From contig OX597815.1 in NCBI GenBank assembly GCA_951406725.2, forward strand, positions 13,640,001 through 13,704,000: a stretch of DNA of 64,000 nt. The letters run 5' to 3'. How positions within the stretch are numbered: the first letter of the stretch is position 1; each line of letters opens with the position of its first letter. The notes beneath the pieces are model-generated. The model ran no database searches and was not told where the DNA came from. It saw only the letters and a list, made by a program, of their open reading frames with translations. Of the stretch, positions 2,068 through 61,815 are shown piece by piece. This DNA is from Octopus vulgaris. Its lineage: Eukaryota. The translations under genes were made by a program, and so were the position numbers.

Positions 2068-2117
2068 TCGCGACTGACGATGGGCAGAAATATCCCGAAA
2101 CCGAGACGATCTCGCGA
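2068..2117 (+). ncRNA. Type I hammerhead ribozyme motif (slightly degenerate)
   Basis: TCGCGA-CTGACGA-t-GGG(cagaaatat)CCC-GAAA-ccgagacg-ATC-TCGCGA. Stem I is the self-complementary TCGCGA; stem III has a mismatch. Confidence 0.6.
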
Positions 2118-4310: not shown

Positions 4311-4520
4311 CTTTTACTCTTTTACTTGTTTCAGTCATTTGACTGCGGCCAGGCTGGAGCACCGCCTTTAATCGAGCAACTTATTCTTTTGTAAGCCCAG
4401 TACTTATTCTATCGGTCTCTTTTGTCGAACCGCTAAGTAACGGAGACATAAACACACCAGCATCGGTTTTCAAGCAATGCTAGAGGAACAAACACAGACA
4501 CACAAACACACACACACACA

Positions 4521-4587
<67 letters not shown>

Positions 4588-4770
4588 GTATGTATATATA
4601 TATATACGACGGGCTTCTTTCAGTTTCCATCTACCAAATCCACTCACAAGGATTTGGTTGGCCCGAGGCTATAGTAGAAGACACTTGCCCAAAGTGCCAC
4701 GCAGTGGGACTGAACCCGGAACCATGTGGTTGGTAAAGAAGCTACTTACCACACAGCCACTCCTGCGCCT
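4311..4770 (-). mobile_element. SINE family 1 copy
   Basis: Reverse-complement match to 38-423. Confidence 0.92.
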
Positions 4771-4774
4771 CCTG

Positions 4775-5072
4775 CATGTGTAATTGATTTGGTTGTTCTG
4801 ATCTTAACATCAGTTGGTAAGTATTGAAGTAATCTGCCGAAATCGTTTTTGTTTGTAATTGACTCACCTGTTGCAGGTTCAATCTGTGGAATATTGAAAT
4901 GATACTCATCATGTCCATTCCACAGAATAAGAGGGTACTGGAGAGCATCATAAGAGGAATGAGTCTGTGAAACACGTTTAAGGTTGTTATCTCGAACACG
5001 AGAATATCATGATTTTCATAGGGATCACCAACCATAAGGATAGCTACTTCATTAGACGTGGGCTCATTAAAA
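4775..5072 (-). mobile_element. Helitron Rep/helicase pseudogene fragment
   Basis: Frameshifted translation FNEPTSNEVAILMVGD...RDNNLKRVSQTHSSYDALQYPLILWNGHDEYHFNI...YQLMLR matches the Helitron RepHel N-terminal pattern (PT.NEVA; H.SYDALQYPL). Confidence 0.8.
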
Positions 5073-12489: not shown

Positions 12490-12730
12490 GATGATCATCA
12501 TCATTGTTCGACCGTGGTCGAGACAATGGAATTTACCATGCTACGCCAGACTTTCAGCTCTACAACAATGTCCAGCAAACTGGACTCTCCTACCTTTCAC
12601 AAGAGATGACACAGGTGGTAGTTTCCCATATATTTGCATTTTGGTTGGATGGCGCTTCCACGAGAGATTTTGAGCTCTCATAAGGAGGCGAGTGTAAGTT
12701 CCATCCAACCGCCTCTCAAGCTTCTAGATG
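12490..12730 (-). mobile_element. RTE-like LINE 3' end with internal deletion
   Basis: Homologous to 16757-17090, with a (TGA)n tail; about 140 nt are missing relative to that copy. Confidence 0.8.
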
Positions 12731-16773: not shown

Positions 16774-17090
16774 CCGCCTTCTCTACAATGCAAATATATG
16801 GGAAACTACCACCTGCGTCATCTCTTGTGAAAGGTGGGAGAGTCCAGTTTGCTGGACATTGATGTAGAGCTGAAAAAGAAGTAAGTTCTACTCTCCTCCT
16901 CTGGAAGCCATCTACTCGCAATACCAGAGGGCGCACACTCTCCTACCCTGATGTAATCTCCAGGGATACAGGCATCCAGCAACAGGACCTCCGTAATGCC
17001 ATGACGGACCGTGAGGTCTGGCGTAGCATGGTAAATTCCATTGTCTCGACCACGGTCGAACAATGAATAATGAATGATGATGAAGATGGT
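16757..17090 (+). mobile_element. RTE-like LINE 3' end
   Basis: IYGKLPP...RVQFAGH*CRA...LLLWKP...RGR..SYPDVISRDTG...LRNAMTDREVWRSMV, then a TGA-rich tail. Confidence 0.82.
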
Positions 17091-19426: not shown

Positions 19427-19626
19427 TACTCTTACTCTTTTACTCTTTTACTTGTTTCAGTCATTTGACTGCGGCCATGCTGGAGCACCGCCTTTAGTCG
19501 AGCAAATCGACCCCGGAACTTATTCTTTGTAAGCCCAGTACTTATTCTATCGGGGTCTTTTGCCGAACCGCTAAGTGACGGGGACGTAAACACACCAGCA
19601 TCGGTTGTCAAGCAATGCTAGGGGGA

Positions 19627-19682
<56 letters not shown>

Positions 19683-19846
19683 CATATATACGACAGGCTT
19701 CTTTCAGTTTCCGTCTACCAAATCCACTCACAAGGCATTGGTCGGCCCGGGGCTATAGCAGAAGACAGTTGCCCAAGATGCCACGCAGTGGGACTAAACC
19801 CGGAACCATGTGGTTGCTTAGCAAGCTACGTACCACACAGCCACTC
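19427..19846 (-). mobile_element. SINE family 1 copy
   Basis: Reverse-complement match to 38-423. Confidence 0.92.
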
Positions 19847-21576: not shown

Positions 21577-21802
21577 CTTTTACTCTTGTACTTGTTTCAT
21601 TTATTAGACTGCGGTTACTGGAACACCGCCTTCCGTCGAGAAAATCGACGCCAGTACTTATTCTTTGTAAGCCTAGTACTTATTCCGTCGGTCTCTTTGA
21701 CCTAACCCCTAAGTTACGGGAACATAAACACACCAGCATCCGTTGTCAAGCGATGTTGGCGGGGACAAACACAGGCACATCAAAACACGCACATACACAC
21801 AT

Positions 21803-21848
<46 letters not shown>

Positions 21849-22199
21849 GTGTGCGTGTGTGTGTGTGTGTGTAAATATATGTACATATATGTAAATATAT
21901 GTAAATATATGTACATATACATATATACGATGTGCTTATTTCAGTTTATGTCTACTAAATCCACTCACAAGGCTTTAGTAGGCCCGAGGCTATAGTGGAG
22001 GACATTTGCCCAAGGTGCCACGCAGTGCGATTGAACCCGGAATCATTTGGTTGGTAAGCAAACTACTTACCACAGAGCCACTCCTGCGCCTGCGTACCAC
22101 ACAGCCACTCCTGCGCCTGCGTACCACACAGCCACTCCTGCGCCTGCGTACCACACAGCCACTCCTGCGCCTGCTTAACACACAGCCACTCCTGTGCGT
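21577..22199 (-). mobile_element. SINE family 1 copy with five tandem copies of its 27-bp 5' end
   Basis: More diverged body; ACCACACAGCCACTCCTGCGCCTGCGT repeated at 22069-22199. Confidence 0.9.
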
Positions 22200-27709: not shown

Positions 27710-27881
27710 GACGGCAGGAGTGGCTGTGTGGTAAGTAGCTTGCTAACCAACCACATGGTTCCGGGTTCAGTCCCACTGCGTGGCATCTTGGGCAAGTGTC
27801 TTCTGCTATAGCCCCGGGCCGACCAATGCCTTGTGAGTGGATTTTGTACACGGAAACTGAAAGAAGCCTGTCGTATATATG

Positions 27882-27931
<50 letters not shown>

Positions 27932-28145
27932 GGGGGAGTTTGTGTGTCTGTATTTGTCCCCCTAGCATTGCTTGACAACTGATGCTGGTGTGTTTACGTC
28001 CCCGTCACTTAGCGGTTCGGCAAAAGAGACCGATAGAATAAGTACTGTGCTTACAAAGAATAAGTCCCGGGGTCGATTTGATCGACTAAAAGCGGTACTC
28101 CAGCATGGCCGCAGTCAAATGACTGAAACAAGTAAAAGAGTAAAA
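27710..28145 (+). mobile_element. SINE family 1 copy
   Basis: Matches 38-423. Confidence 0.92.
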
Positions 28146-29380: not shown

Positions 29381-30487
29381 TTAGGTTGTCCGGAAAGTTC
29401 GTGTTGATTTATAGTAGCTTACATTTCGACTTATTTTAAACATATTTGAATCCATAAAATAGGATTTGACTACACCTCCATTTAGAGCACAGTTTAAGCT
29501 ATCTTTTCGTGGGAGAATGTTTATTTCCCTATAATCTGCATTATTTTTGTAACCCTTTAAATTGGAAGATAAGGAACTTCATTTTCCGCTATTGATGCTT
29601 TTCTGTTTCCGTAAAGAGAAAAATGCCTCTCAAGCAACCAAAGAAATATGCGCAGTTTACGGTGATGTTTCGTCATCCGAAAGAACTGTACGGAAGTGGT
29701 TCACAATGTTCCGAGCTGGAGATTGTAGCCTTATTGATAAAGAGCGATTAGGCAGACCATCCACAACAGATGATGATGAAGTTATTGAGAATAACCCGCA
29801 TTACACAACCCGAGAATTGGTAGAAAGCCTCAACCTATCAAAATCCGTCGTTCATGAGCACCTGGTAAAGCTTCGGTACACAAATCGCTACGATATTTGT
29901 GTACCACATGAGTTGAGTGAGAAGAACCTTTTGGATTGCATTTCCATCTGCGATTCGCTTTTTAAAAGCAAATTGTGACAGGTGATGAGAAATGGATTAT
30001 CTACCGAAATGTTCAGAGAAAGTGATCCTGGAGTAAGCGACGTGAGCCACCCTTAGCCACCCCATAAGCAGGTCCTCACCCTAAAAAATCTTGCTTTTTG
30101 TCTGGTGCGAAAGGAATTCTGTACTATCAGCTTCTCCCAAGTAATCAGACAATTAATCTGGGAATTACAGCACACACACAAGAGAAACGTCTGGAATTGG
30201 TCAACAGGACGGGTGTTATTTTCCACCTTTTCTTTGGGAACCAAACAAAAATATTTGCAGATAGGCTGGGATGTGTTATCCCATCATCCATATTCACCAG
30301 ATATTGCTCTTTCGGATTTCCACTTATTCAGGTCCCTGTAGAATAGCCTTAATGGTAAAAATTTCAATTCTTTGGCTGACGTAAAAAGATACCTTGATGA
30401 ATTCTTTGCCATGAAACTACCTCAATTCTGGGAAGAGGGTATTTTCAAGTTAAAGGAAAGATGGAGATACATTGTGCAACGAAATGG

Positions 30488-30492
<5 letters not shown>
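29381..30492 (+). mobile_element. Mariner (Tc1/mariner) transposon, pseudogenised, right end lost
   Basis: TA plus a TIR-like TTAGGTTGTCCGGAAAGTTC; HTH region (TVRKWF..FR.GD.SL.D..R.GRP), CVPHEL (WVPHEL), IVTGDEKW, HHPYSPDIALSDFHLFRSL. Frameshifts and stops; ends in (TA)n. Confidence 0.93.
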
Positions 30493-30543
<51 letters not shown>

Positions 30544-30737
30544 GGATGTACGTACCTATCTATTTTTCACTATTCCTTGTTCTACCTAGCCATTTATATA
30601 TGTTGATAGATAGACTGAGATATAGATGTATGTACACATTCATGTGTACATGAACATACATAATTTTCAGTAAACTACATGCGTATGTTTCCTTGATAAA
30701 ACTTTCAATGTAACTATATAGCATCCATACATACTTT

Positions 30738-30773
<36 letters not shown>

Positions 30774-30855
30774 GCAAGGAAAAATTGTAAAAATGCAGAA
30801 TGCTCGGTGCGGTCAACACAGCCCCACCATTTATTGATCTATATTTATTGAGAGG

Positions 30856-32227
30856 GTGGTGAGATCTCGAATAACCCAATTTCTGGAAAGCAACAGACGG
30901 CTGATCTCTAACCAACATGGGTTCCGTAATGGAAGGGACTGCCTAACGCAGCTCCTGCATCACTTTGATGACAGTTTGAGAGCTTTGGGAGAGGGCTCCA
31001 ACACCGATGTCATCTACCTTGATTTCAGTAAGGCCTTCGACAGGGTCGATCACAATATCCTATTGAAAAAACTATCCAACATTGGTGTCTCTGGAAAGTT
31101 ACTGAAATGGATCAAGTGTTTCCTGACAGACAGATCTCAACATGTTGTAGTTGAAGGGGTAAAATCAAGCCCAGTCAAAGTCAGGGCCCCCTTCTTTTCA
31201 TCATTTACATTAATGACATTAATGACATCATCAAGCACAGCAACATAAAAATCTTTGCAGATGATTCCAAGCTACAGAAGGTCATAAATGAGGCGAGTGA
31301 CCGGACATGCCTTCAGTCAGATCTACTGGCTGTTATCCAATGGGCAGAAAAAAACAATATGCTGCTGAACGAGGATAAATTTGAGTTAATCCACTTTGGA
31401 TAAGAGGATGCCCTGAACCTCCCATACTCCAACAACCTCCAACAACCCTGAACCTCCAACAACATCAGAGACTTGGGAGTAATTGTGGACAACAACATAA
31501 GCTGGGCCACTCATATAAACACCAAAGTTGACATGACCCGCAGAATGTGTTCCTGGATTCTCAGAACTTTCCAGTCGAGAGATATCCACACCATTATCCT
31601 TCTCTTCTCCACTTTTGCCCGACCCCACCTTGAATACTGTTGTCCACTGTGGTCTCCCCACACAATAAAAGGTATCATAAAAGTTGAAGCACCTCAAAGG
31701 GCAATCACAAAAAAGATACATGGCATGACAGGCCTCGACTATTGGGGTCGACTAGAAAAGCTAAAGCTTTATTCTCTCCAACGTCGTCGTGAGCGCTACA
31801 TCATCTGCATGATGTGGAAAATATTCCATCAGCATTGCCCAAATGATGTTGGCATCACCTTTAAGGTACATCCAAGGCTTGGGCCCCGTGCCATCCGCCC
31901 AAAATAAAAATCGCACTCTCATCTCATAACAACAATACGGTACAATTATTTCACCTCAATTGGCCCCGCTCTCTTTAACATTACACCAAAACACATTAAA
32001 ACAGAAACTGACCCTATAGGGTTCAAGAAGTCTCTGGACAGATTTCTTCAAGAAATCCCGGATAAACCCCCTACACCCGGATATGTCTCTGTAAACAATA
32101 ACTCTCTACTTGAGTGGGCCATAGTGCCCAAATTCTGACTTGAAAGACTTCACCAGGTGGTGCTATTAAGTTAGACATGACCTGGGCCAATAATGGCCGA
32201 AACCTATCAAAGTATCAAAGTATCAAA

Positions 32228-32816: not shown

Positions 32817-33123
32817 TTTTCACTTTGACCGGCAGATCTTTAAAATAATTTCTTTGTAACTAAACAATTTTAAGCTTCGTGTACTGGTAGTGCTGTTGAC
32901 AAAATACGGCAGATATTGTATTCACCTCAACAGACGTCATTGAGTGGTTGCAATTGCCGAAATGCAAGAAATTAAACAAGAAATAGCTTACAAACTACAG
33001 AATTTCCTCAAGAAAGTCAAGAGAAAAAGATGTTTTATGTGACACATTCTACCAGTATACGAAGTTTAAAAGTGTTTAGTTACAAAGGAATTATTTTAAA
33101 AAATCTGCCGGTCAAAGTGATCC
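32817..33123. mobile_element. MITE with ~70-bp TIRs and 8-bp TSD (Merlin- or Mutator-like)
   Basis: TIRs at 32821-32890 and 33049-33119 (CACTTTGACCGGCAGAT...); direct repeat TAGCCCGT at 32809 and 33124; right terminus reads GGATCAC on the reverse strand. Confidence 0.8.
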
Positions 33124-34088
33124 TAGCCCGTTGCTTATGCAAGCAGAAGCAGCTCACTAAACGCCGTGGAAATTGTTGCCGTAGAGGTGACATTGAGGAC
33201 GGTGGTAATCGAGATAGGGTAGTGTGGGTGTAGGTTGAAAGCAGTGGAGATAAATCCTGTTGTGTTAATGGCAGTCGCACTTGGTGTTGTCTACATCGGT
33301 GTAGTTGGCGAAGATGGTAGTGGTAAGTGCCGTGGCAGTAATACATGATAGCTAGGCAACGTGGTTGATAGATGGTGGTCAGCAACAAACATATGTCGCC
33401 GCGGCAGACAATAGCGGTGTTGCAGAATATATTGTTGATAGATAACAACAGTATTAGCTGCCTGGGTTTCGAGGGTGTTGGTCGTGGTTGCAGTGATATA
33501 GGACGTGTCTTGTAACACATATACAGGAGGCACCGATGCAACTTCAATCGTGTATTGATTTTTCGATTTAAGTCGGTCGATCAGGAACGCTTATTTGATA
33601 CGGATATTTCCCATGTTCCTCCCCGAGGAATTTTTGGCTTTCATTCATTATTCTACTTTTGAACAAAACTGCTCATCTCTCTCTCTTTCTTTCTTTCTCT
33701 CTCTCTCTCGCTCTCGCTCTCTCTCTCTGTATGTATGTTTGTATATATATATATAGACAATTAAATTAAGCAGCAGTTTAGCGATGTATCGCGAAAACGG
33801 AAAACTATAATTGTCATTGAATATATATGTGTGTTAGCATGGCCGCAGTCAAATGACTGAAACCACTAACAGAATATATATACATATACATACATATATA
33901 TATATATATATAATAAATATTAGGGAATAAATCCAAATTTACAGGGAAAAAAATCAGATTTAGGATTAAATCCAATTTTATAGTAAAATATTATATAATA
34001 TTATTAGAGACAAAACCACTATTTTGCAAAACAAACAAGGAAAGACTTAATCAATACATAAAATTTTAATAAAAAGTCAAAAAAACCG

Positions 34089-34131
34089 CCACTACAATTG
34101 TTTCTTGTCCTGATCGACAACCTTCAGGTGG
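34089..34131 (-). ncRNA. Type I hammerhead, core-mutant copy (CUGAAGG, A9G)
   Basis: Reverse complement of 34164-34206 except at position 34121. Confidence 0.85.
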
Positions 34132-34163
34132 ACTTCCTAATTTGAAACTGACTTATTGGAAGT

Positions 34164-34206
34164 CCACCTGAAGATTGTCGATCAGGACAAGAAACAATTG
34201 TAGTGG
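34164..34206 (+). ncRNA. Type I hammerhead ribozyme, intact core
   Basis: CCAC-CTGAAGA-TTGTC(GATCAG)GACAA-GAAA-CAATTG-TA-GTGG. Predicted GUA cleavage after 34202; palindromic stem/loop III. Confidence 0.92.
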
Positions 34207-34291
34207 CGGTTTTTTTGACTTTTTATTAAAATTTTATGTATTGATTAAGTCTTTCCTTGTTTGTTTTGCAAAATAGTGGTTTTGTCTCTAA

Positions 34292-34383
<92 letters not shown>

Positions 34384-34424
34384 AGAGAGAGAGAGAGTGA
34401 GAGAGGTACATATACACAATGTGT

Positions 34425-34568
34425 TTTTTCAATTTCATCTTTGAAATCCACTGACAAGTATTTGGTAGGCCAGAGACTATAGTTGAAAGCACTTGCCCAA
34501 GGTGTCAAGCAATGAGATTGAATTGGGAGCCATGTGGTTGAAAATCAAGTATCTTACTACACAGTCAT
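34425..34568 (-). mobile_element. Old diverged SINE family 1 head
   Basis: AAATCCACTGACAAG...CACTTGCCCAAGGTG...CCATGTGGTTG...CTTACTACACAGTCA. Confidence 0.65.
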
Positions 34569-38301: not shown

Positions 38302-39291
38302 TTCTAAATATGCATTTATATCTAAGAATTTAAGTACCTTCTTGGAAAACATCGATATGATTTCAGCCTATTCCATTAACGTTACATCGTCGTAATAATG
38401 TACACTTAAGAAGCGTAACGAAAACCTCCAAGTGGGAGAATCTTTTACTAGATTCAAATGCAAAATGCCCAAGTTTCTTCAGTTTAACTATTCCGTATCA
38501 ACTTAAAACATTTTCTTATTTACTTAATGTGCGAACGTAATTTGTGATAGAGATGAGTGGAATTTTAAAAGTACTACATTTATTAGTACAATAATAGATA
38601 GATATCTAAAACCACACTTTGTATATTTATCTTTGAAGAGAGCACCGGATATGCCCCAATGGAAATATGAAAGTAGATTTCAATCAGTTTACGAAAAAGA
38701 AACAAGAAGAATAATTCCTAGCGCTACTTAAAAGTTATAGCCGTGCTATGAAACGAATTAAAATTTTACATTGTGAGAGAAATTTAAACATCAAATTATG
38801 AATGCATTAAGATATAATCGAAAACCAGCTGCGAAAAATATAATGGTGAGTAAACTGATTTTTAATAGCTAATAGAGGCATTTGTGAAATTTGCGAGTGT
38901 GTATATTATATATATATATACACTCTCCTATTACACACACATCACTCAAACGCGCACACACACACACACATATATATATTGAATGATTAATTATCTCTAG
39001 GTTTCTTTCTCCGTAAGTTTGTCGATAGTATTCAGAATATCCATTCTATGCTCTGATATTTTAGCTATTTAATTATGTGTGATACAGTGAAATGGTCTCG
39101 TTGCAGAATGTTACTGGTATGCCGAAGTTTTAGCTGCCGTTTCTATCACGCCCCATTGCTGTTAATATTTGTTTCTTAGTCATATGGCTCTAAATTTTAC
39201 GATAATTTATGCATTCTGTCTGAAAACATGTGTCTAGTAATCCCGAAGTTTGTAACAAAAAATTGACGGGGTTTGTAAAGAAATGTAAAGT

Positions 39292-39457
39292 AGGCGCAGG
39301 AGTGGCTGCGTGGTAAGTAGCTTGTTTACCAGCCACATGGTTCCGGGTTCAGTCCCACTGCGTGGCATCTTTGGCGAGTGTCTTCTACTATAGTCTCGGG
39401 CCGACCAAAGCCTTGTGAGTGGATTTGGTAGACGGAAACTGAAAGAAGCCCGTCGTA

Positions 39458-39501
<44 letters not shown>

Positions 39502-39722
39502 TGTGTGTGTTTGTGCGTCTGTGTTTGTCCCCCTTAGCATTGCTTGACAACCGATGCTGGTGTGTTTATGTCCCCGTTACTTAGCGGTTCGGCAAAAGAG
39601 ACCGATAGAATAAGTACTGGGCTTACAAAAGAATAAGTCCCGGGGTCGAGTTGCTCGATTAAAAGGCGGTGCTCCAGCATGGCCGCAGTCGAGTGACTGG
39701 AACAAGTAAAAGAGAGAGTAAA
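39292..39722 (+). mobile_element. SINE family 1 copy
   Basis: Matches 38-423. Confidence 0.92.
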
Positions 39723-40945: not shown

Positions 40946-41003
<58 letters not shown>

Positions 41004-41098
41004 AAATTAGAGACAAAACCACTATTATGCAAATCAAACAAAGAAAGACTTAAGCCAATACATAAAATAATTTATAAATTAAAATTTAACAAATGAAT

Positions 41099-41150
41099 AA
41101 CCACTACGATCGTTTCGTGTCAGCACATCTTAGACATTCTGCAGGTGGTT
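41099..41150 (-). ncRNA. Type I hammerhead, core-mutant (CUGCAGA), in a solo PLE arm at 40998-41180
   Basis: AACCAC-CTGCAGA-aTGTC(taagatgtgct)GACAc-GAAA-CGATCG-TA-GTGGTT. Flank TTAGAGACAAAACCACTATT is shared with the 33992-34303 arms. Confidence 0.8.
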
Positions 41151-41177
41151 TCTAAACCTTCTTAGCGAGTTATAAAC

Positions 41178-41208
<31 letters not shown>

Positions 41209-43830: not shown

Positions 43831-44188
43831 ACTCTTTTACTCTTTTACTTGTTTCAGTCATTTGACTGCGGCCATGCTGGAGCACCACCTTTAATCAGAG
43901 CAACTCGATTATGACGGGGACATAATGACGGGGACATAAACACACCAGCATCGGTTGTCAAGCAATGCTAGGGGGACAAACACAGACACACAGACACACA
44001 CGCACATATATATATACATATATACGACGGGCTTCTTTCAGTTTCCGTCTACCGAATCCACTCGCAAGGCTTTGGTCGGCCCGAGGGTATAGTAGAAGAC
44101 ACTTGCCCAAGGTGCCACGCAGTGGGACTGAACTCGGAACCATGTGGTTGGTAAGCAAGCTACTTACCACACAGCCACTCCTGCGCCT
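43831..44188 (-). mobile_element. SINE family 1 copy with internal deletion and a 14-bp duplication
   Basis: ATGACGGGGACATA occurs twice at the deletion junction. Confidence 0.9.
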
Positions 44189-44221
44189 ATATTTTATATA
44201 TTTTATATTTTATCTAGTTTC

Positions 44222-48419: not shown

Positions 48420-48754
48420 TATATATTATTGTGTGTATATTCGTTTTGCAAGATTATTGATATGAATTCGTGTGTTGAAATAGGTATTGTTGTATTTGGG
48501 GATAGTTATGTTGCCAGTTTAGCCAATGGAAACACGTTCTATATATTTGGTGTTCACTTGCTTAGGCTTTATTTCACAGTAATTGTATTTCGGTCAGAGT
48601 TCTTTCGTCACACTTCTGTAACCTCATACAGTGCGACGAAAGAATTCTGACCGCCCAAATACAATTAATATGAAATAAACCTGAAGCAAGTGAGCACCAG
48701 ATATATAGTGCGCATTTTTATTGGCTAAAGTGGCAATATTACCATCCCCAAATT

Positions 48755-48757
<3 letters not shown>
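48420..48757. mobile_element. Diverged Penelope-like foldback unit centred on a hammerhead
   Basis: Imperfect arms at 48490-48614 and 48630-48757 with a 15-nt spacer. Arm sequence is homologous to the PLE 3' end at 56880-57040. Confidence 0.8.
48595..48633 (-). ncRNA. Degenerate hammerhead (CUGUAUGA)
   Basis: CA-CTGTATGA-g-GTTAC(agaagt)GTGAC-GAAA-GAAC-TC-TG. Confidence 0.6.
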
Positions 48758-51649: not shown

Positions 51650-54600
51650 AGATTAGGGGTGGATGGGGCTCCTTTGTTTACCCAAGTCGTGGCGAAGGCA
51701 GACTATCTAGGACAAGGTAACTCTAAATGTAAATACTTCACTGCTGCCTTCTAGCTAGCCTTTGATTAGGCAAAGACGAGGAGCTCATTCTGATATAAAG
51801 CCAGCGACTGAAAACGCGCCCAATGATGTGGACTTGCTCTTGTTTTTGGATCATGCTTTGTAGTTTAGAGAGTGGGAATGGTTTCTGTACAAAAGTTATC
51901 CGCACTTTAAAAATCATGAAGCACAGGTATTGCTGTTGAGGAAAACGAAATGATCGTCTTGTAAAACGAAATGGTCGAAGCCTTAAAAACGCACATCTAA
52001 ACAATAAAAGTTGATATTGATACTGAAGCAAATAGCAAAAAGGAACGGCAACAGTTAGTTCTGTGGCTTGGCTCAGCAGGTGTAACAGGGAAAAACAACC
52101 TGGATCCGTTTGTCATCCTACAACTGTGATTAAATTTGGGTTTAGATGTAAGGCTATGAATATAGGATGTTGGAATGTTTATTAGACTTTATTAGATAAT
52201 GATTGTCTGAATGTTGGTCCAAAGAGAAGATACGCGCTTGTCGCGAAAGAGTTACAGCGACATGATATGGATGTTGTAGCATTAGCCGAAACAGGAATTC
52301 ATACAAAAAAAAAAAATTGTAGAAAGATCTGCAGGATATCATTTATTTCGGAACGCTTGAGAAGAGATCTATAAGCGACAATCACGAGTGGATGTTGCAA
52401 TCAAAACCACTCTGGTTAAAATACTTGAGGAACTGCCATATGGTCATTCTGATTGTTTGATGTCTTTAATTTTTCCGTTAAAAAATGTTTCTATGCAACT
52501 CTTATACGTACATATGCTCCAACTATGAATTCATCATATGATGATAAACTTGCTTTCTAACTATCACTTACAGAGATTGTATGCAGTATCCCTCTTGATG
52601 ACAGAGTTGTCAATTTAAGTGATTTTAATGCTCACGTTGGTGAAAATTTGGAGACCTGGGGCGGCTTAAGAAGGCATTAGATGGGGAGTTCCAACAGTAA
52701 TGGTTTACTACTATTAAAAATGTGCGTAAATATTTATTTGTGTCTCAAGAACACAATGTTTCAACTAAAAAATAAGTATAAAATTTTGTGAATGCACACT
52801 TTGTTTCTAAGAAATGGTATATTATAGATTACATTCTTACTAGGACACGAGATACTAGATACTTTGCTATTGTACGTATGATGCGTAATGTAGAGTGCTG
52901 GCCCGACTATAGGCTTTTGTTTGCTAAGGTGCATTTTTTTGTAAACCCTAAGGTTAGAGAAAATAATGACAAGTTACTCAAACGGAATGATGTCAATAAA
53001 CTTAAGATAATATCAGTGCACAATGAGTTTGTGAGTGAGATAAATAATTTGTCCTATGATATAAGTTGGAAATCATTCTAAGAAAGAGTATATGAGGTTT
53101 GCTGTAAAAAAGCACCAAGATTGGTTTGACGATAATGATTGAGAAGTAAGTCCCATCTTAGAGGAAACGCGAAAGGCATTTAACATGTTGCAAAGTGTTG
53201 TCATGAAACGAACCGGAGAGTGGCTACACATTTCAAGGCAGTAAAAGCAAAAGTGCAGAGGAAGATGGAAAATTGGTTGAGTGATATATGCGACGAAATG
53301 CACGAAGCCTCAAATACTAACAATTCCAAAGTTTTTTTTTTTACTTTCTCTTGTAAAACGTTTGTGGACCAGCTTCGTCAACGTTTGTGTCACTTCGGAG
53401 CAAGGATGGCGCAGAATTATCAATAAATTCTAAAGACATTGTTGGGAGATGAAAACAGTATTTTGATGAGTTGCTGATAAGACCCACTTAATTTTACCTC
53501 TCTTTTCTTGATAACATAACTTGGAGGCCAAGAGAACATCTTTTATCAGACATTCCAAACCTGGCTGAAATAAAAGCGGCAATCAGGAAATTGGACAATG
53601 GAAAGAACCCTGGTATGGATGGACTAGATTCAGAGATATATAATTATAGTGGTGATCATCTCTGTACAATATCCACAGATACGATTCAGAGAGTTTGACA
53701 TAGTGACGATCTTCCTCCGGATTGGCGTGATGCAACAATGTAGATACTGTATAAATGAAAATGTGGAAATAAAAGCGGCAATCAGGAAATTGGACAATGG
53801 AAAGAAGCCTGGTATGGATGGACTAGATTCAGAGATATATAATTATAGTGGTGATCATCTCTGTACAATATCCACAGATACGATTCAGAGAGTTTGACAT
53901 AGTGACGATCTTCCTCCGGATTGGCGTGATGCAACAATGTAGATACTGTATAAATGAAAATGTGGAAATAAAAGCGGCAATCAGGAAATTGGACAATGGA
54001 AAGAAGCCTGGTATGGATGGACTAGATTCAGAGATATATAATTATAGTGGTGATCATCTCTGTACAATATCCACAGATACGATTCAGAGAGTTTGACATA
54101 GTGACGATCTTCCTCCGGATTGGCGTGATGCAACAATGTAGATACTGTATAAATGAAAATGTGGAAATAAAAGCGGCAATCAGGAAATTGGACAATGGAA
54201 AGAAGCCTGGTATGGATGGACTAGATTCAGAGATATATAATTATAGTGGTGATCATCTCTGTACAATATCCACAGATACGATTCAGAGAGTTTGACATAG
54301 TGACGATCTTCCTCCGGATTGGCGTGATGCAACAATGTAGATACTGTATAAATGAAAAGGTGGAAAGGATGCCTGTAAAAATTATGGCGGCATCTGTCTG
54401 TTAGCTGTTGCTGGAGAGGTCCTTTGTAGGGTAATGCTGGACAGATTGCTTCTGCGCATTACTGTTGAAGTTCTACCAAAATTGCAATGTGGGTTTAAGG
54501 ATAGTAGGGGTGCTATGGATATAATATTTTCAGCCAGACAGCTGCAAGAGAAGGGCATCGAACATCATATCGACTTATAGCAGGTTTTCATTGTTCTAAC

Positions 54601-56129: not shown

Positions 56130-57045
56130 TTCTGTAATTTTTCTGATTGTTGCATCTGTTCTATGTGTGGAGTACTTAAGAAGGAAGGAGCTCTTCGATT
56201 GTGTACCAACACGCCGAGCAGGAACACAGGGGATCAATCAACAACATAGAGGTTAAAATATTGTTCACACATAGAACAGATGCAACAATCAGACAAATTA
56301 CAGAAGCTACACACATAATAGAAGATAAATCTAGCCTGAATAGGAAACTGGAATGAAACACTAGCACACACCACAACATATGACAGAAGAGTATCCCCAT
56401 AAACTGGTTACAATAGAAAAAAAACCGAAAACATAATAAATAAAATACACAGATAAATAAACTAATAGAAATGAATAACTGTATAGGTTTTCTTTTTTAA
56501 TTTAAAAGATTGTTTTTAATTTTTTAAATTTGCTTTTTAATTTATTAATTAAAAATTTTTTTTAATGTTTTATTATTATTATTATTGTTAATACTAGTAT
56601 TGTTGTTATACATACATACATACATACAAGCATACGTAATAATAATAATAACGATGATAAAAATAAGTGGATAAAATAAACAAAAACGAAAACAAATTAC
56701 ACGAACGTATATAAACAGAAGATACAAATATGACAGGCATTCCTCCACACATACATACACACTATCTAAACATAGACGCACATAGAGATATACGCATGCG
56801 CAAATGAAGACACATACAATAGAAATACAAAAGGCCTGACGGTTAGTAAGGAGAGACATAAATAAGAAAAAAGAAAGCAAAGGACCACTGTTGCGGTCAC
56901 AGGAGTGTGACGAAAGAACTCTGGCCGAAATAAGATTAAGATTAATGTAAAAAATAAATAACACTGAAGCAAAGTAACACCAAATATATAGTGCGTGTGT
57001 TTTTATTGGCTAAACTGGCAAAATGACCATTCGTATATCCAGCAA
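56130..57045 (+). mobile_element. 5'-truncated Penelope-like element with a short 5' inversion
   Basis: IVYQHAEQEHRGSINNIEVKILFTHRTDATIRQITEA...LNRKLE* is the GIY-YIG C-terminus, homologous to 61440-61600. 56130-56169 is an inverted copy of 56266-56305. 3' hammerhead at 56882. Confidence 0.8.
56882..56926 (+). ncRNA. Degenerate hammerhead in a PLE 3' repeat
   Basis: CCA-CTGTTGC-g-GTCAC(AGGAGT)GTGAC-GAAA-GAAC-TC-TGG. Stems intact, core mutated. Confidence 0.65.
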
Positions 57046-58758: not shown

Positions 58759-58824
<66 letters not shown>

Positions 58825-59013
58825 ACATTATATATAAGGGCTTAGTAAAATAAATTACTTTGCCACATACTGAACTCATTAGAAATAGCAGCTAAAGAAA
58901 TTTCTTCAGGTATTTCTAATACTTAAAGAAGATCTCTCTCAGATAGTGTTTGCCTAAACCAACTCACAAAGGTATGGGGGAAAAAACATTAAAAATCAAG
59001 TGCAAAGGTTATT

Positions 59014-59065
59014 TGAGAACGTACGTTTCTAGATTAGTCAATTCGACATTTCTTTCGTCAGCTCA
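59014..59065 (-). ncRNA. Type I hammerhead ribozyme, intact core
   Basis: TGAG-CTGACGA-aAGA(aatGTCgaattGACtaa)TCTa-GAAA-CGTACG-TT-CTCA. GUU cleavage triplet; palindromic stem III. Confidence 0.85.
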
Positions 59066-59184
59066 GAATTCCTTGAATCGGATTTGGGAACACTGAAAGT
59101 CGGGAGCATACCCTTTCGGCTTCTCATCAGCCGAAAGGGTATGCTCCCGACTTTCAGTGTTCCCAAATCCGATTCAAGGAATTC

Positions 59185-59236
59185 TGAGCTCACGAAAGAA
59201 ATGTCGAATTGACTAATCTAGAAACGTACGTTCTCA
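59185..59236 (+). ncRNA. Type I hammerhead, core-mutant copy (CUCACGA, G5C)
   Basis: Reverse complement of 59014-59065 except at position 59191. Confidence 0.82.
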
Positions 59237-61815
59237 AATAACCTTTGCACTTGATTTTTAATGTTTTTTCCCCATACCTTTGTGAGTTGGTTTAGGCAAA
59301 CACTATCTGAGAGAGATCTTCTTTAAGTATTAGAAATACCTGAAGAAATTTCTTTAGCTGCTATTTCTAATGAGTTCAGTATGTGGCAAAGTAATTTATT
59401 TTACTAAGCCCTTATATATAATGTAATATTTTGAATTCGCCTAAAATGGTCCCTTTACATACTGAATACTTGATGAAATTGATTAATAATTAATTAATTT
59501 TACCCTCAATTGTTGAAATTATATATATACATATATATATATCTATCTTAATCTCAGTCACTCTACTTTTCTCTCTGGTAGCTTTTAACAGTGCTTTTTA
59601 TGGTAATTCGTTTTCTCCTACTTCTCTACTCTCCCAGAACTCGGAGATTTCCTTTTATTTTCGCGTCTTTGATTTCATACCTTCATTTCAAGCAAAAGTG
59701 TGTCTCACTCATACATTTGCATAATTTTCAACCTCACCTTCCACGTTCCTTTTCCTTTTTGCCTGACTCTTTCATGCGCTCAGACTTCTTCACACCAGCG
59801 CTCTCTTCACACTGCACAAGAATCTAAACATCATTCTTCCATATGCTCACAGAATACTCGCATACCCTCCAATACTTGCACAAAATCTTTGCACGTTTGT
59901 GAACGTTTTCCGACGACCCAACATACAAATCCGGAAAAATGCCATCTATATCGCAGAAAGTACACAAACATATTAACGAAGAAATTCTCAATGAAGTAAA
60001 AGAATCAACAATAAATGTTCCAACCTAATAGAAAAACTAAGCAAATTTCAGGATTTCCTGCAAAACACGATAGAAAAGAGGAAGAGAATTATTTGACAAA
60101 CACTCAATACACAAACAACATTGAAGTTGTTTGCAAAAATATCCAGGCAAACGTCCAAACATGTTGAGTAGAATATAATTCACATCGTGCAAGAATATCC
60201 GCAAATAATCCCAAGTCATCTCTCCAAAAGAGAGACGGACGCGATATATTTGGTTTAAAATCTCTCATAAGGATATTTAAATTGTGGAATATATTCAGAA
60301 ACAAGAAGAAAGCAGAAAATTTCAAACACTATATAACCTAAATACAATTGACCTTACTGGAAAAAGTACACATCAAACCGACACCCGAAGAACCAGAACA
60401 ACAGATAATTGTATGTCAAATATTATGTGGAGCTAGAAAGCAAAGTGATATTGAGACTTATAGAATACACTAACGAATAAATATACAATGTCAGAGACCA
60501 ACAACTGAAACTGGAAATTTCAAAAGGGGAAAATCGACCAAAAACTGCAAGATTGAGATGATAGTGTCTAGAAACAAGAATGGGAAAGCGATGAACTGAT
60601 TTCTTTACATAGAAATGAAACAAACGAACAGTGGCTCACCTCGTATGAAGAACAATTCAGTAAAGAATACGCAACAAACCTAGACCGACTCTTAAAAACA
60701 GGATAATCAAAAATCTCTACTGCGACCCTTACTCTCTAACAACAGAGATAGACTAACAAATGGGTAAAACAGGATCTCAACACAAAAGTACGACGGTAAT
60801 TTCGGACAAGAATTGTCAAATCATATGGAACAATCGTATAAAATTAGTAGGAAAAAATACCATGCACTAAAACATACTGCAATAATTTCACAGGAAGCCA
60901 ACATCACATGATATGAAATAATTTTAGAGAACATAAAAAAATCCACAACCAAATGGAGAACAATAATTTCGAATGACACCAAGATTGCAGGATAAGGAAA
61001 ACATTCAGAGAACACAATAACATGTTGAATGCTGAAATACGCTGAAATTATACAAACAATAATTTAAGAAAAAGCAAGTAGATTGTAAACAAATGTGACT
61101 CCAATCGTAAGAACTGATTTTTAGACATAAACCAGAAAGACAGAGACACAAGCTAGCTTCCACGGATTAAAGTAGTAGAAAAGCCTAGTGCCCGTATAAA
61201 CTCCCAGACCTGTAAAACATATCCCTTCCATAAGTCCCCATGTAAGGAGAACAGTTGTATTGTATGCAGGAAGAACCGAAGGGTTAACTGTAAGGTTAGG
61301 AGTAGTGTATAGTATATAGCTTACGATGTCCTGAGGGACGGTGCAAAAGCATGATAACTACTTACATTGGAGAGACAGCACGCAGCATAGGAAAACATAT
61401 AGGTGAGCACTGGTGAGAGGTCAAAGAAGCGAAATGCTCGTCAGTGGTCCATTAACATGCTCAAGCAGAACATAGATACTCAGTCAATAGCATAACGGTC
61501 AAAGTATTATCAACGCATAGAACTGATACGACACTTAGACAGTTCAGAGACGCCGCACTCAGAGCAATAGGCAGACCGAGCCTCAAACGAAAGCACGAAT
61601 GAAACAAGAACACCCACTGCGACATAACACAACATGACGACAAAAGACTAAAGATTGAAGGGAGAAACAGAAGAAACATTCTGATACAAACAGCGTAATA
61701 GACATACAATAGACATATATGCATATACCTATGATAAATATGAAAAAAAATTAGAAACGAAAGAAATCTGTATGAAGAGAACGGATGCAAAGAACATAGG
61801 AAGCGAACTCATATA

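Follow-up and report, generated by a model that had tools for sequence, protein, structure and literature searches.

A minimal hammerhead motif in an inverted repeat of Octopus vulgaris as the probable ribozyme of a truncated Penelope-like element

The window analysed here, a stretch of 64,000 nucleotides of Octopus vulgaris DNA (contig OX597815.1, positions 13,640,001 to 13,704,000), carries a minimal type I hammerhead motif at 34164..34206 on the forward strand. The motif lies in the right arm (34158..34303, forward strand) of an inverted repeat whose left arm occupies 33992..34137 on the reverse strand. The arms are 146 nt long, are 99% identical and flank a 20-nt spacer (34138..34157, forward strand). 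The single base that distinguishes them, 34121, falls within a second hammerhead copy in the left arm (34089..34131, reverse strand), where it replaces core A9 with G. Ribozyme sense points outward in both arms, so that the arms stand head to head with their 3' ends outward and the spacer forms the junction. Together with 34131-37 and 34158-64, the spacer forms a 7-bp hairpin.

The right arm resembles the 5'-truncated, pLTR-like 3' end of an element, and its short 3' end runs into a (TA)n tract that appears to be the right target flank (34304..34381). The left arm alone continues into an 80-nt tail (33912..33991, reverse strand), beyond which lies the left flank, a TA-rich microsatellite (33876..33911, start approximate). 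No second copy of the tail was found within the window; it is deeply covered in four of four sequencing runs and is hence family sequence. No target-site duplication was readable inside the (TA)n tract.

Other repeats surround the locus. A SINE-like family, whose members span about 430 nt and contain an internal microsatellite, is present in at least seven copies at 80-96% identity plus decayed pieces (37-420, 4327-4775, 19453-19846, 21578-22091, 27714-28145, 39289-39714, 43850-44211 and 34424-34567), the last of these directly to the right of the hammerhead palindrome. A MITE-like 72-nt inverted repeat (32820-32890 and 33049-33120, 92% identity, about 160 nt apart) lies 0.8 kb to its left. 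Near-identical pieces of one further repeat occur at 12510-12640 and 16787-17057 (42 nt at 100% and 89 nt at 97%), the former without about 140 nt that are present in the latter.

The motif at 34164..34206 has the CUGANGA, GAAA and NUH core elements and three helices and is open at stem I, as expected of type I. Stem I has 4 bp (CCAC at 34164-67 with GUGG at 34203-06). The core strand CUGAAGA (34168-74) leads into stem II, which has 5 Watson-Crick bp (UUGUC at 34175-79 with GACAA at 34186-90) and a 6-nt loop and whose closing pair is U10.1-A11.1. GAA at 34191-93 and A15.1 at 34194 follow. Stem III is the palindrome CAAUUG (34195-200), 8 nt long when A15.1 and U16.1 are counted (34194-34201), and is followed by a GUA site. 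An earlier sequence-only reading had described the 4-bp stem I, CUGAAGA, the 5-bp stem II, GAAA, CAAUUG and GUA, and each was found where it had been placed. The cleavage position had also been rightly predicted: A17 of the GUA site is 34202, and the predicted cut falls at 34202/34203.

Motifs were sought with a descriptor that demanded an exact core, 4 bp or more in stem I, 3 bp or more in stem II and full palindromic symmetry of stem III. Two motifs in the window matched this exact-core descriptor, and all 300 local dinucleotide shuffles were empty. When a single core mismatch was tolerated, the window gave six motifs and the 100 shuffles examined gave none. The hammerhead motif at 34164..34206 is real and not a product of chance.

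The same reading had called the motif canonical and the best candidate for activity. The first term does not fit: the canonical metazoan type I hammerhead has a 6-bp helix I, a 4-bp helix II and G10.1-C11.1, whereas helix I here has 4 bp, helix II has 5 bp and the pair at 10.1-11.1 is U-A. Rfam searches of 34140-34280 found no hammerhead model at E<=10 and three weak unrelated matches, and across the whole window there was no hammerhead model among the matches listed (150 of 281). A microRNA reading was rejected, the mir-3938 and mir-361 matches over 34103-34192 being far below the gathering score and reflecting the perfect hairpin. In computed secondary-structure folds, loop 1 of the motif is undefined and no contact between loops 1 and 2 is evident. 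The second term holds in a relative sense, as two of the six window motifs have an exact core and the one at 34164 surpasses the other in stem II and possesses a GUA site, but not as a forecast of good activity, given U10.1-A11.1 and the low probability of the active fold. Cleavage rate is lowered both by a U-A pair at 10.1-11.1 and by A9G. PMC3088659 gives this general backing only, its relevant passage ranking pair 10.1-11.1 as the most conserved after 15.1-16.1. In PLE motifs, according to an excerpt of PMC4209133, G10.1-C11.1 is highly conserved; an excerpt of PMC544870 gives no effect size for this pair.

Further hammerhead-like motifs and palindromes are present in the window. A second hammerhead palindrome, at 58820-59520, belongs to an unrelated family and follows the same plan, with arms that measure about 297 nt, a spacer of 7 nt, TA flanks and a tail of about 90 nt on the right arm only. 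Its left motif (59065-59014, reverse strand) has an exact core, an A10.1/A11.1 mismatch and a GUU site, and its right motif (59185-59236) carries G5C at 59191. An older palindrome at 48491-48756, with arms 79-82% alike, ends in (TA)n and has a decayed hammerhead-like core near its centre; a solo relative of it occupies 56886-57030. A solo hammerhead-like motif at 57387-57343 (reverse strand) carries G8A, has 5 bp in each of stems I and II and a stem III formed by a 6-nt palindrome, and is followed by a T-rich stretch and then TA repeats. Another, at 2068-2117 (forward strand) after a short TA tract, has exact CUGACGA and GAAA, G10.1-C11.1 and a broken stem III.

The family itself has a solo diverged copy in the window at about 41000..41180 (reverse strand; outer limits approximate), 77% identical over 139 nt and lying between TA-rich tracts. 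Its hammerhead (41150-41099, reverse strand) keeps stem I and has a different stem II and A6C. In this copy the palindrome is preserved by a double change, from CAAUUG to CGAUCG.

Beyond the window, the right arm or part of it is contained in 21 of 24 listed sequencing runs from 10 studies under four organism labels, one of which may be the source of the sequence itself. Contig records were placed on the left arm, tail and spacer in four of four runs (2651, 1345, 1971 and 25 records). In the three large runs, summed depth was about 1e6 near 34011-34028, 3e3-4e4 at 34128-34136 and below 400 at 34146-34154, and in all four runs depth was 5- to 17-fold lower directly past 34137. Contig depth is no copy number, and stem II divergence between subfamilies may add to the fall, but the polarity is that of a 3'-anchored, 5'-truncated repeat. 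Depth across 34092, checked for clustering of 5' ends at the cleavage site, declines gradually, and contigs cannot show RNA ends. Among the runs listed as containing the right arm, none is on record as an RNA run; one run (X6) is RNA by guess only, and its 25 records were not counted as evidence of expression. Pattern scans for the family hammerhead and, separately, for a conserved tail motif returned no loci in metagenome, genome and viral contig collections.

Loose ends running into TA repeats were seen at 33992 (16 records in run X2), at 34003 (19, 25, 19 and 3 records) and at 33916 (7 records in run X9). Those at 33992 and 34003 and those at 33916 indicate two 3' ends for the family, one without and one with the tail. 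Six joints were listed; in three of them, the spacer is preceded by some or all of 34131-37 but not by the left arm of this locus. The joint sides, at 20-23 letters, are weak. We infer that the spacer and its 7-bp hairpin are native to the element and lie directly upstream of its hammerhead, with separate inverted junctions at this point in other loci. No listed contig spans the whole examined stretch, and the exact junction is thus without independent confirmation.

The records also indicate how the stem III palindrome varies. CGAUUG, a variant at 34099, accounts for 53%, 0.3%, 36% and 24% of depth in runs X2, X7, X9 and X6. As CAAUUG, CGAUUG and CGAUCG can each pair with themselves, these variants support past selection on a dimer helix in the family. 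At 34074, 73-96% of family depth has a letter other than that of the locus. Both arms of the locus agree there and hence derive from one minority lineage.

We consider it highly probable that the hammerhead belongs to the pLTR of a PLE family of high copy number, as its ribozyme motif, and that the locus is one young, heavily 5'-truncated insertion of two 3' ends joined head to head. The hammerhead sits close to the 3' end of an interspersed repeat that is truncated at its 5' side, with the proviso that the depth gradient may partly reflect divergence, and the inverted copy stands head to head in an AT-rich, (TA)n target with a tail of 80 nt on one arm. Features of this kind have been described for PLEs. 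Excerpts of PMC4209133 identify pairs of minimal hammerheads, placed on opposite strands at distances of 100-700 bp, as truncated PLE remnants, and report a small palindromic helix III in PLEs of fly, rotifer, shrimp and mosquito. Inverted pLTRs, mostly head to head, with an optional tail on one arm and junction palindromes are described in part of PMC3846280, and inverted 5'-truncated copies with tails and a (TA)n bias in part of PMC8557442. An octopus genome is described as having recently active Penelope families in PMC13282606, an excerpt of which does not mention ribozymes.

It is by architecture that the family would be linked to an autonomous PLE. Pfam searches of the window, run on 23 frames of at least 100 aa and 128 of 186 fragments of at least 62 aa, detected neither a PLE reverse transcriptase nor a GIY-YIG domain. 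The two sets overlap slightly and leave out SINE and microsatellite frames, tandem duplicates and frames already scanned. The absence of a PLE reading frame from the window is expected for a 5'-truncated stump. Coding remnants of other kinds are present: a mariner transposase remnant at 29553-30650 (HTH_48 at 29553-29978, E 2e-15) is followed by a broken reverse transcriptase, LINE-like by eye, at 30838-31904 (RVT_1 at 30838-31400, E 2.7e-11). At 53567-54366, four tandem copies (99% identity, period about 199 nt) lie inside a decayed LINE-like reverse transcriptase remnant and represent either a recent amplification or an assembly artefact.

The starting point for a mechanism is what is observed at the locus: two near-identical arms whose 3' ends lie outward in TA repeats, one of them 80 nt longer. 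A PLE protein could have primed cDNA synthesis at the AT-rich target from two RT start sites, one giving the short end and the other the tailed end. The strands would then have been joined, or one of them folded back, through the 7-bp hairpin upstream of the ribozyme, leaving the 20-nt spacer. A fold-back copy of the right arm cannot supply the 80 extra nucleotides of the left arm, which leaves two candidate routes: either both target strands were primed and the products joined through the 7-nt complementarity, or fold-back was followed by trimming. In vitro, as set out in part of PMC11167929, both strands of AT-rich DNA are cleaved and extended by a PLE protein, which begins at two RNA sites that mark the limits of the tail.

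The closest counterparts of the motif are the metazoan PLE pLTR hammerheads of the minimal type I with a small palindromic helix III (Cervera and de la Pena 2014, PMC4209133). With these it shares the exact core, a 4-bp helix I, the palindromic 15.2-16.2 and loop 3 region and the dimer-type design, and the pairing of hammerheads on opposite strands is like that of the truncated PLE remnants in the same work. It differs from the motifs described there in having U10.1-A11.1 rather than G10.1-C11.1, in having no extra nucleotide after position 9 and before 10.1, and in a helix II of 5 bp rather than 7-8. The insertion is like the inverted-pLTR insertions of endonuclease-positive PLEs, as described by Arkhipova 2013 (PMC3846280) and Craig 2021 (PMC8557442), in its head-to-head 5'-truncated copy, one-arm tail, small junction palindrome, (TA)n target and lack of a readable target-site duplication. 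It is unlike them in that its tail measures 80 nt as against 30-40 and no reading frame is left. The longer tail and the U10.1-A11.1 pair, set against published tails and the conserved G10.1-C11.1, may be counted as points against a PLE origin. For PAc Poseidon of Anolis, the sections of Frangieh 2024 (PMC11167929) that bear on this point describe two RT start sites, which would explain two 3' ends, as well as AT-rich targets and priming of both strands. There the reading frame starts inside the hammerhead, whereas here no obvious start follows the motif when the sequence alone is inspected by eye. Penelope/Poseidon, Neptune, Nematis and Hydra are candidate clades for the family.

Among the alternatives, the family might be a non-autonomous hammerhead element, either a non-LTR retrozyme monomer or a SINE-like PLE derivative, mobile as a short unit in palindromic or monomeric form. 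It is very abundant, and the 5- to 17-fold drop looks as if many copies end or diverge past 34137; in addition, an excerpt of a preprint reports retrozymes to be PLE derivatives (bioRxiv 10.64898/2026.07.22.740005). Non-LTR retrozymes, as described by Cervera and de la Pena 2020 (PMC7229834), are likewise non-coding and low in GC, with a type I hammerhead, high copy number and a length of 150-400 nt. However, those elements form direct tandem arrays with canonical loop-loop contacts, whereas the window contains no tandem array and its copies are two inverted arms and one solo copy. The listed joints also vary between records, which argues against one fixed palindromic unit. We regard a short mobile unit as unlikely. 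A non-LTR retrozyme at the locus was rejected for want of a direct tandem repeat of the unit there or elsewhere in the window. A MITE or fold-back DNA transposon was rejected on the 80-nt asymmetry of the ends, the existence of a solo single-arm copy and the lack of a readable target-site duplication.

Folding calculations bear on what the PLE hammerhead could do. In the folding model, the bare 43-mer adopts the active monomer fold with P=0.013, and within its own arm this falls to 2e-4. For two 43-mers, the double hammerhead is the minimum-energy fold (−22.2 kcal/mol, as against −13.2 kcal/mol for two monomers); with 6-nt flanks, an alternative beats it by 2 kcal/mol. The short helix I, the 8-nt palindrome that allows a double hammerhead and the compensatory variants are those of the minimal, dimeric PLE type. 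The proposal that this is a PLE-type hammerhead whose palindromic stem III suits it to dimers was thus borne out, both by the co-fold and by the palindrome kept in the relative. As the second copy at the locus is on the opposite strand, no tandem dimer can form in cis, and a dimer must form in trans. The folds and the literature together suggest that the monomer would cut poorly or not at all and would need a second molecule, through the 8-bp stem III, and probably the PLE protein. A comparable PLE motif is reported, in an excerpt of PMC4209133, to show no monomer cleavage and low dimer cleavage, and part of PMC11167929 describes a PLE hammerhead whose cleavage depends on the presence of protein and which insertion in vitro does not need.

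It had also been proposed that the palindrome could silence its own ribozyme through the antisense arm. Thermodynamically this is upheld: within the full palindrome, 73.8 kcal/mol separate the active fold from the ensemble, and its probability in a read-through transcript is about 1e-52. By computation, any transcript that includes the left arm would form a duplex of about 146 bp that excludes the ribozyme fold, and a start at 34120, 44 nt upstream, would already block stem I. As a function the idea is not supported, as head-to-head arms are the usual PLE product; self-silencing is probably a by-product of the inverted geometry, and self-pairing follows from that geometry automatically. One version would make the locus a functional switch, in which read-through turns the ribozyme off and transcripts started in the spacer leave it on. 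The energies do run in this direction: relative to the ensemble, the active fold is 73.8 kcal/mol higher in the full palindrome, 24 kcal/mol higher for a transcript started at 34120 and 5 kcal/mol higher in the right arm alone. Any inverted copy, however, would give the same silencing, and the arms are near-identical and hence young, with no time for selection and no sign of it. There is no same-strand partner at the locus, the arrangement is a known product of PLE insertion (in the relevant parts of PMC3846280 and PMC8557442), and the active fold remains rare when the antisense arm is absent (P 2e-4). Such a switch is very unlikely. As a PLE remnant, the copy at 34164 is most likely a passenger. 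Were it transcribed, the folding model makes 146-bp duplex RNA a likelier effect of read-through than cleavage; antisense small RNAs against Penelope families are described in part of PMC3846280.

That the palindrome is an assembly artefact (a fold-back chimera) or a fold-back duplication after insertion is scarcely credible, for although near-perfect inverted repeats beside microsatellites are hard to assemble and listed contigs leave the junction unspanned, the left arm carries 80 nt of family sequence that are absent from the right arm and for which the right arm cannot have been the template, the two arms are not identical at 34121, and two other palindromes in the window follow the same plan, one of them decayed to 79-82%.

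The base at which the arms differ lies in the catalytic core. The sole arm-to-arm difference in 146 nt (34121/34174) is A9G, in the long-tailed arm. At the 58820-59520 palindrome, which is likewise young, the sole internal arm-to-arm substitution in about 297 nt (59059/59191) is G5C, again in the long-tailed arm; the outer end of those arms also shows a single indel and a single mismatch. Given a core of 11 positions, both substitutions would fall there by chance with a joint probability of 0.003-0.005, a value that is post hoc and based on n=2. For 34121 the four runs list no other letter. Such a missing entry proves nothing in itself, but it speaks against a simple private mutation and suggests that G9 may be common in the family. 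The two arms might have been copied from two RNA templates, with ribozyme activity deciding which template survived; in a variant of this idea, G9 would be the majority state, a lineage with a dead ribozyme would have been amplified massively, and the intact arm would be the exception. We hold this to be doubtful. Literature searches, one of them on twin priming, showed no title on an asymmetry of core mutations between arms, with most subscription journals outside their coverage.

As it stands, the locus is a further instance of a retrotransposon ribozyme class that is known and very abundant, inserted in a geometry described before. The role of the hammerhead in PLE mobilisation is called "still unclear" in a passage of PMC8557442. 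Were the asymmetry between arms to hold across the genome, an unequal pairing of an intact with a dead hammerhead would be preserved in head-to-head insertions, and sequence by itself would report on the activity of hammerheads in vivo during PLE transposition. Young palindromes would then, if the asymmetry is general, provide an internally controlled test of the role of the hammerhead in PLE mobilisation, drawn from genome sequence alone.
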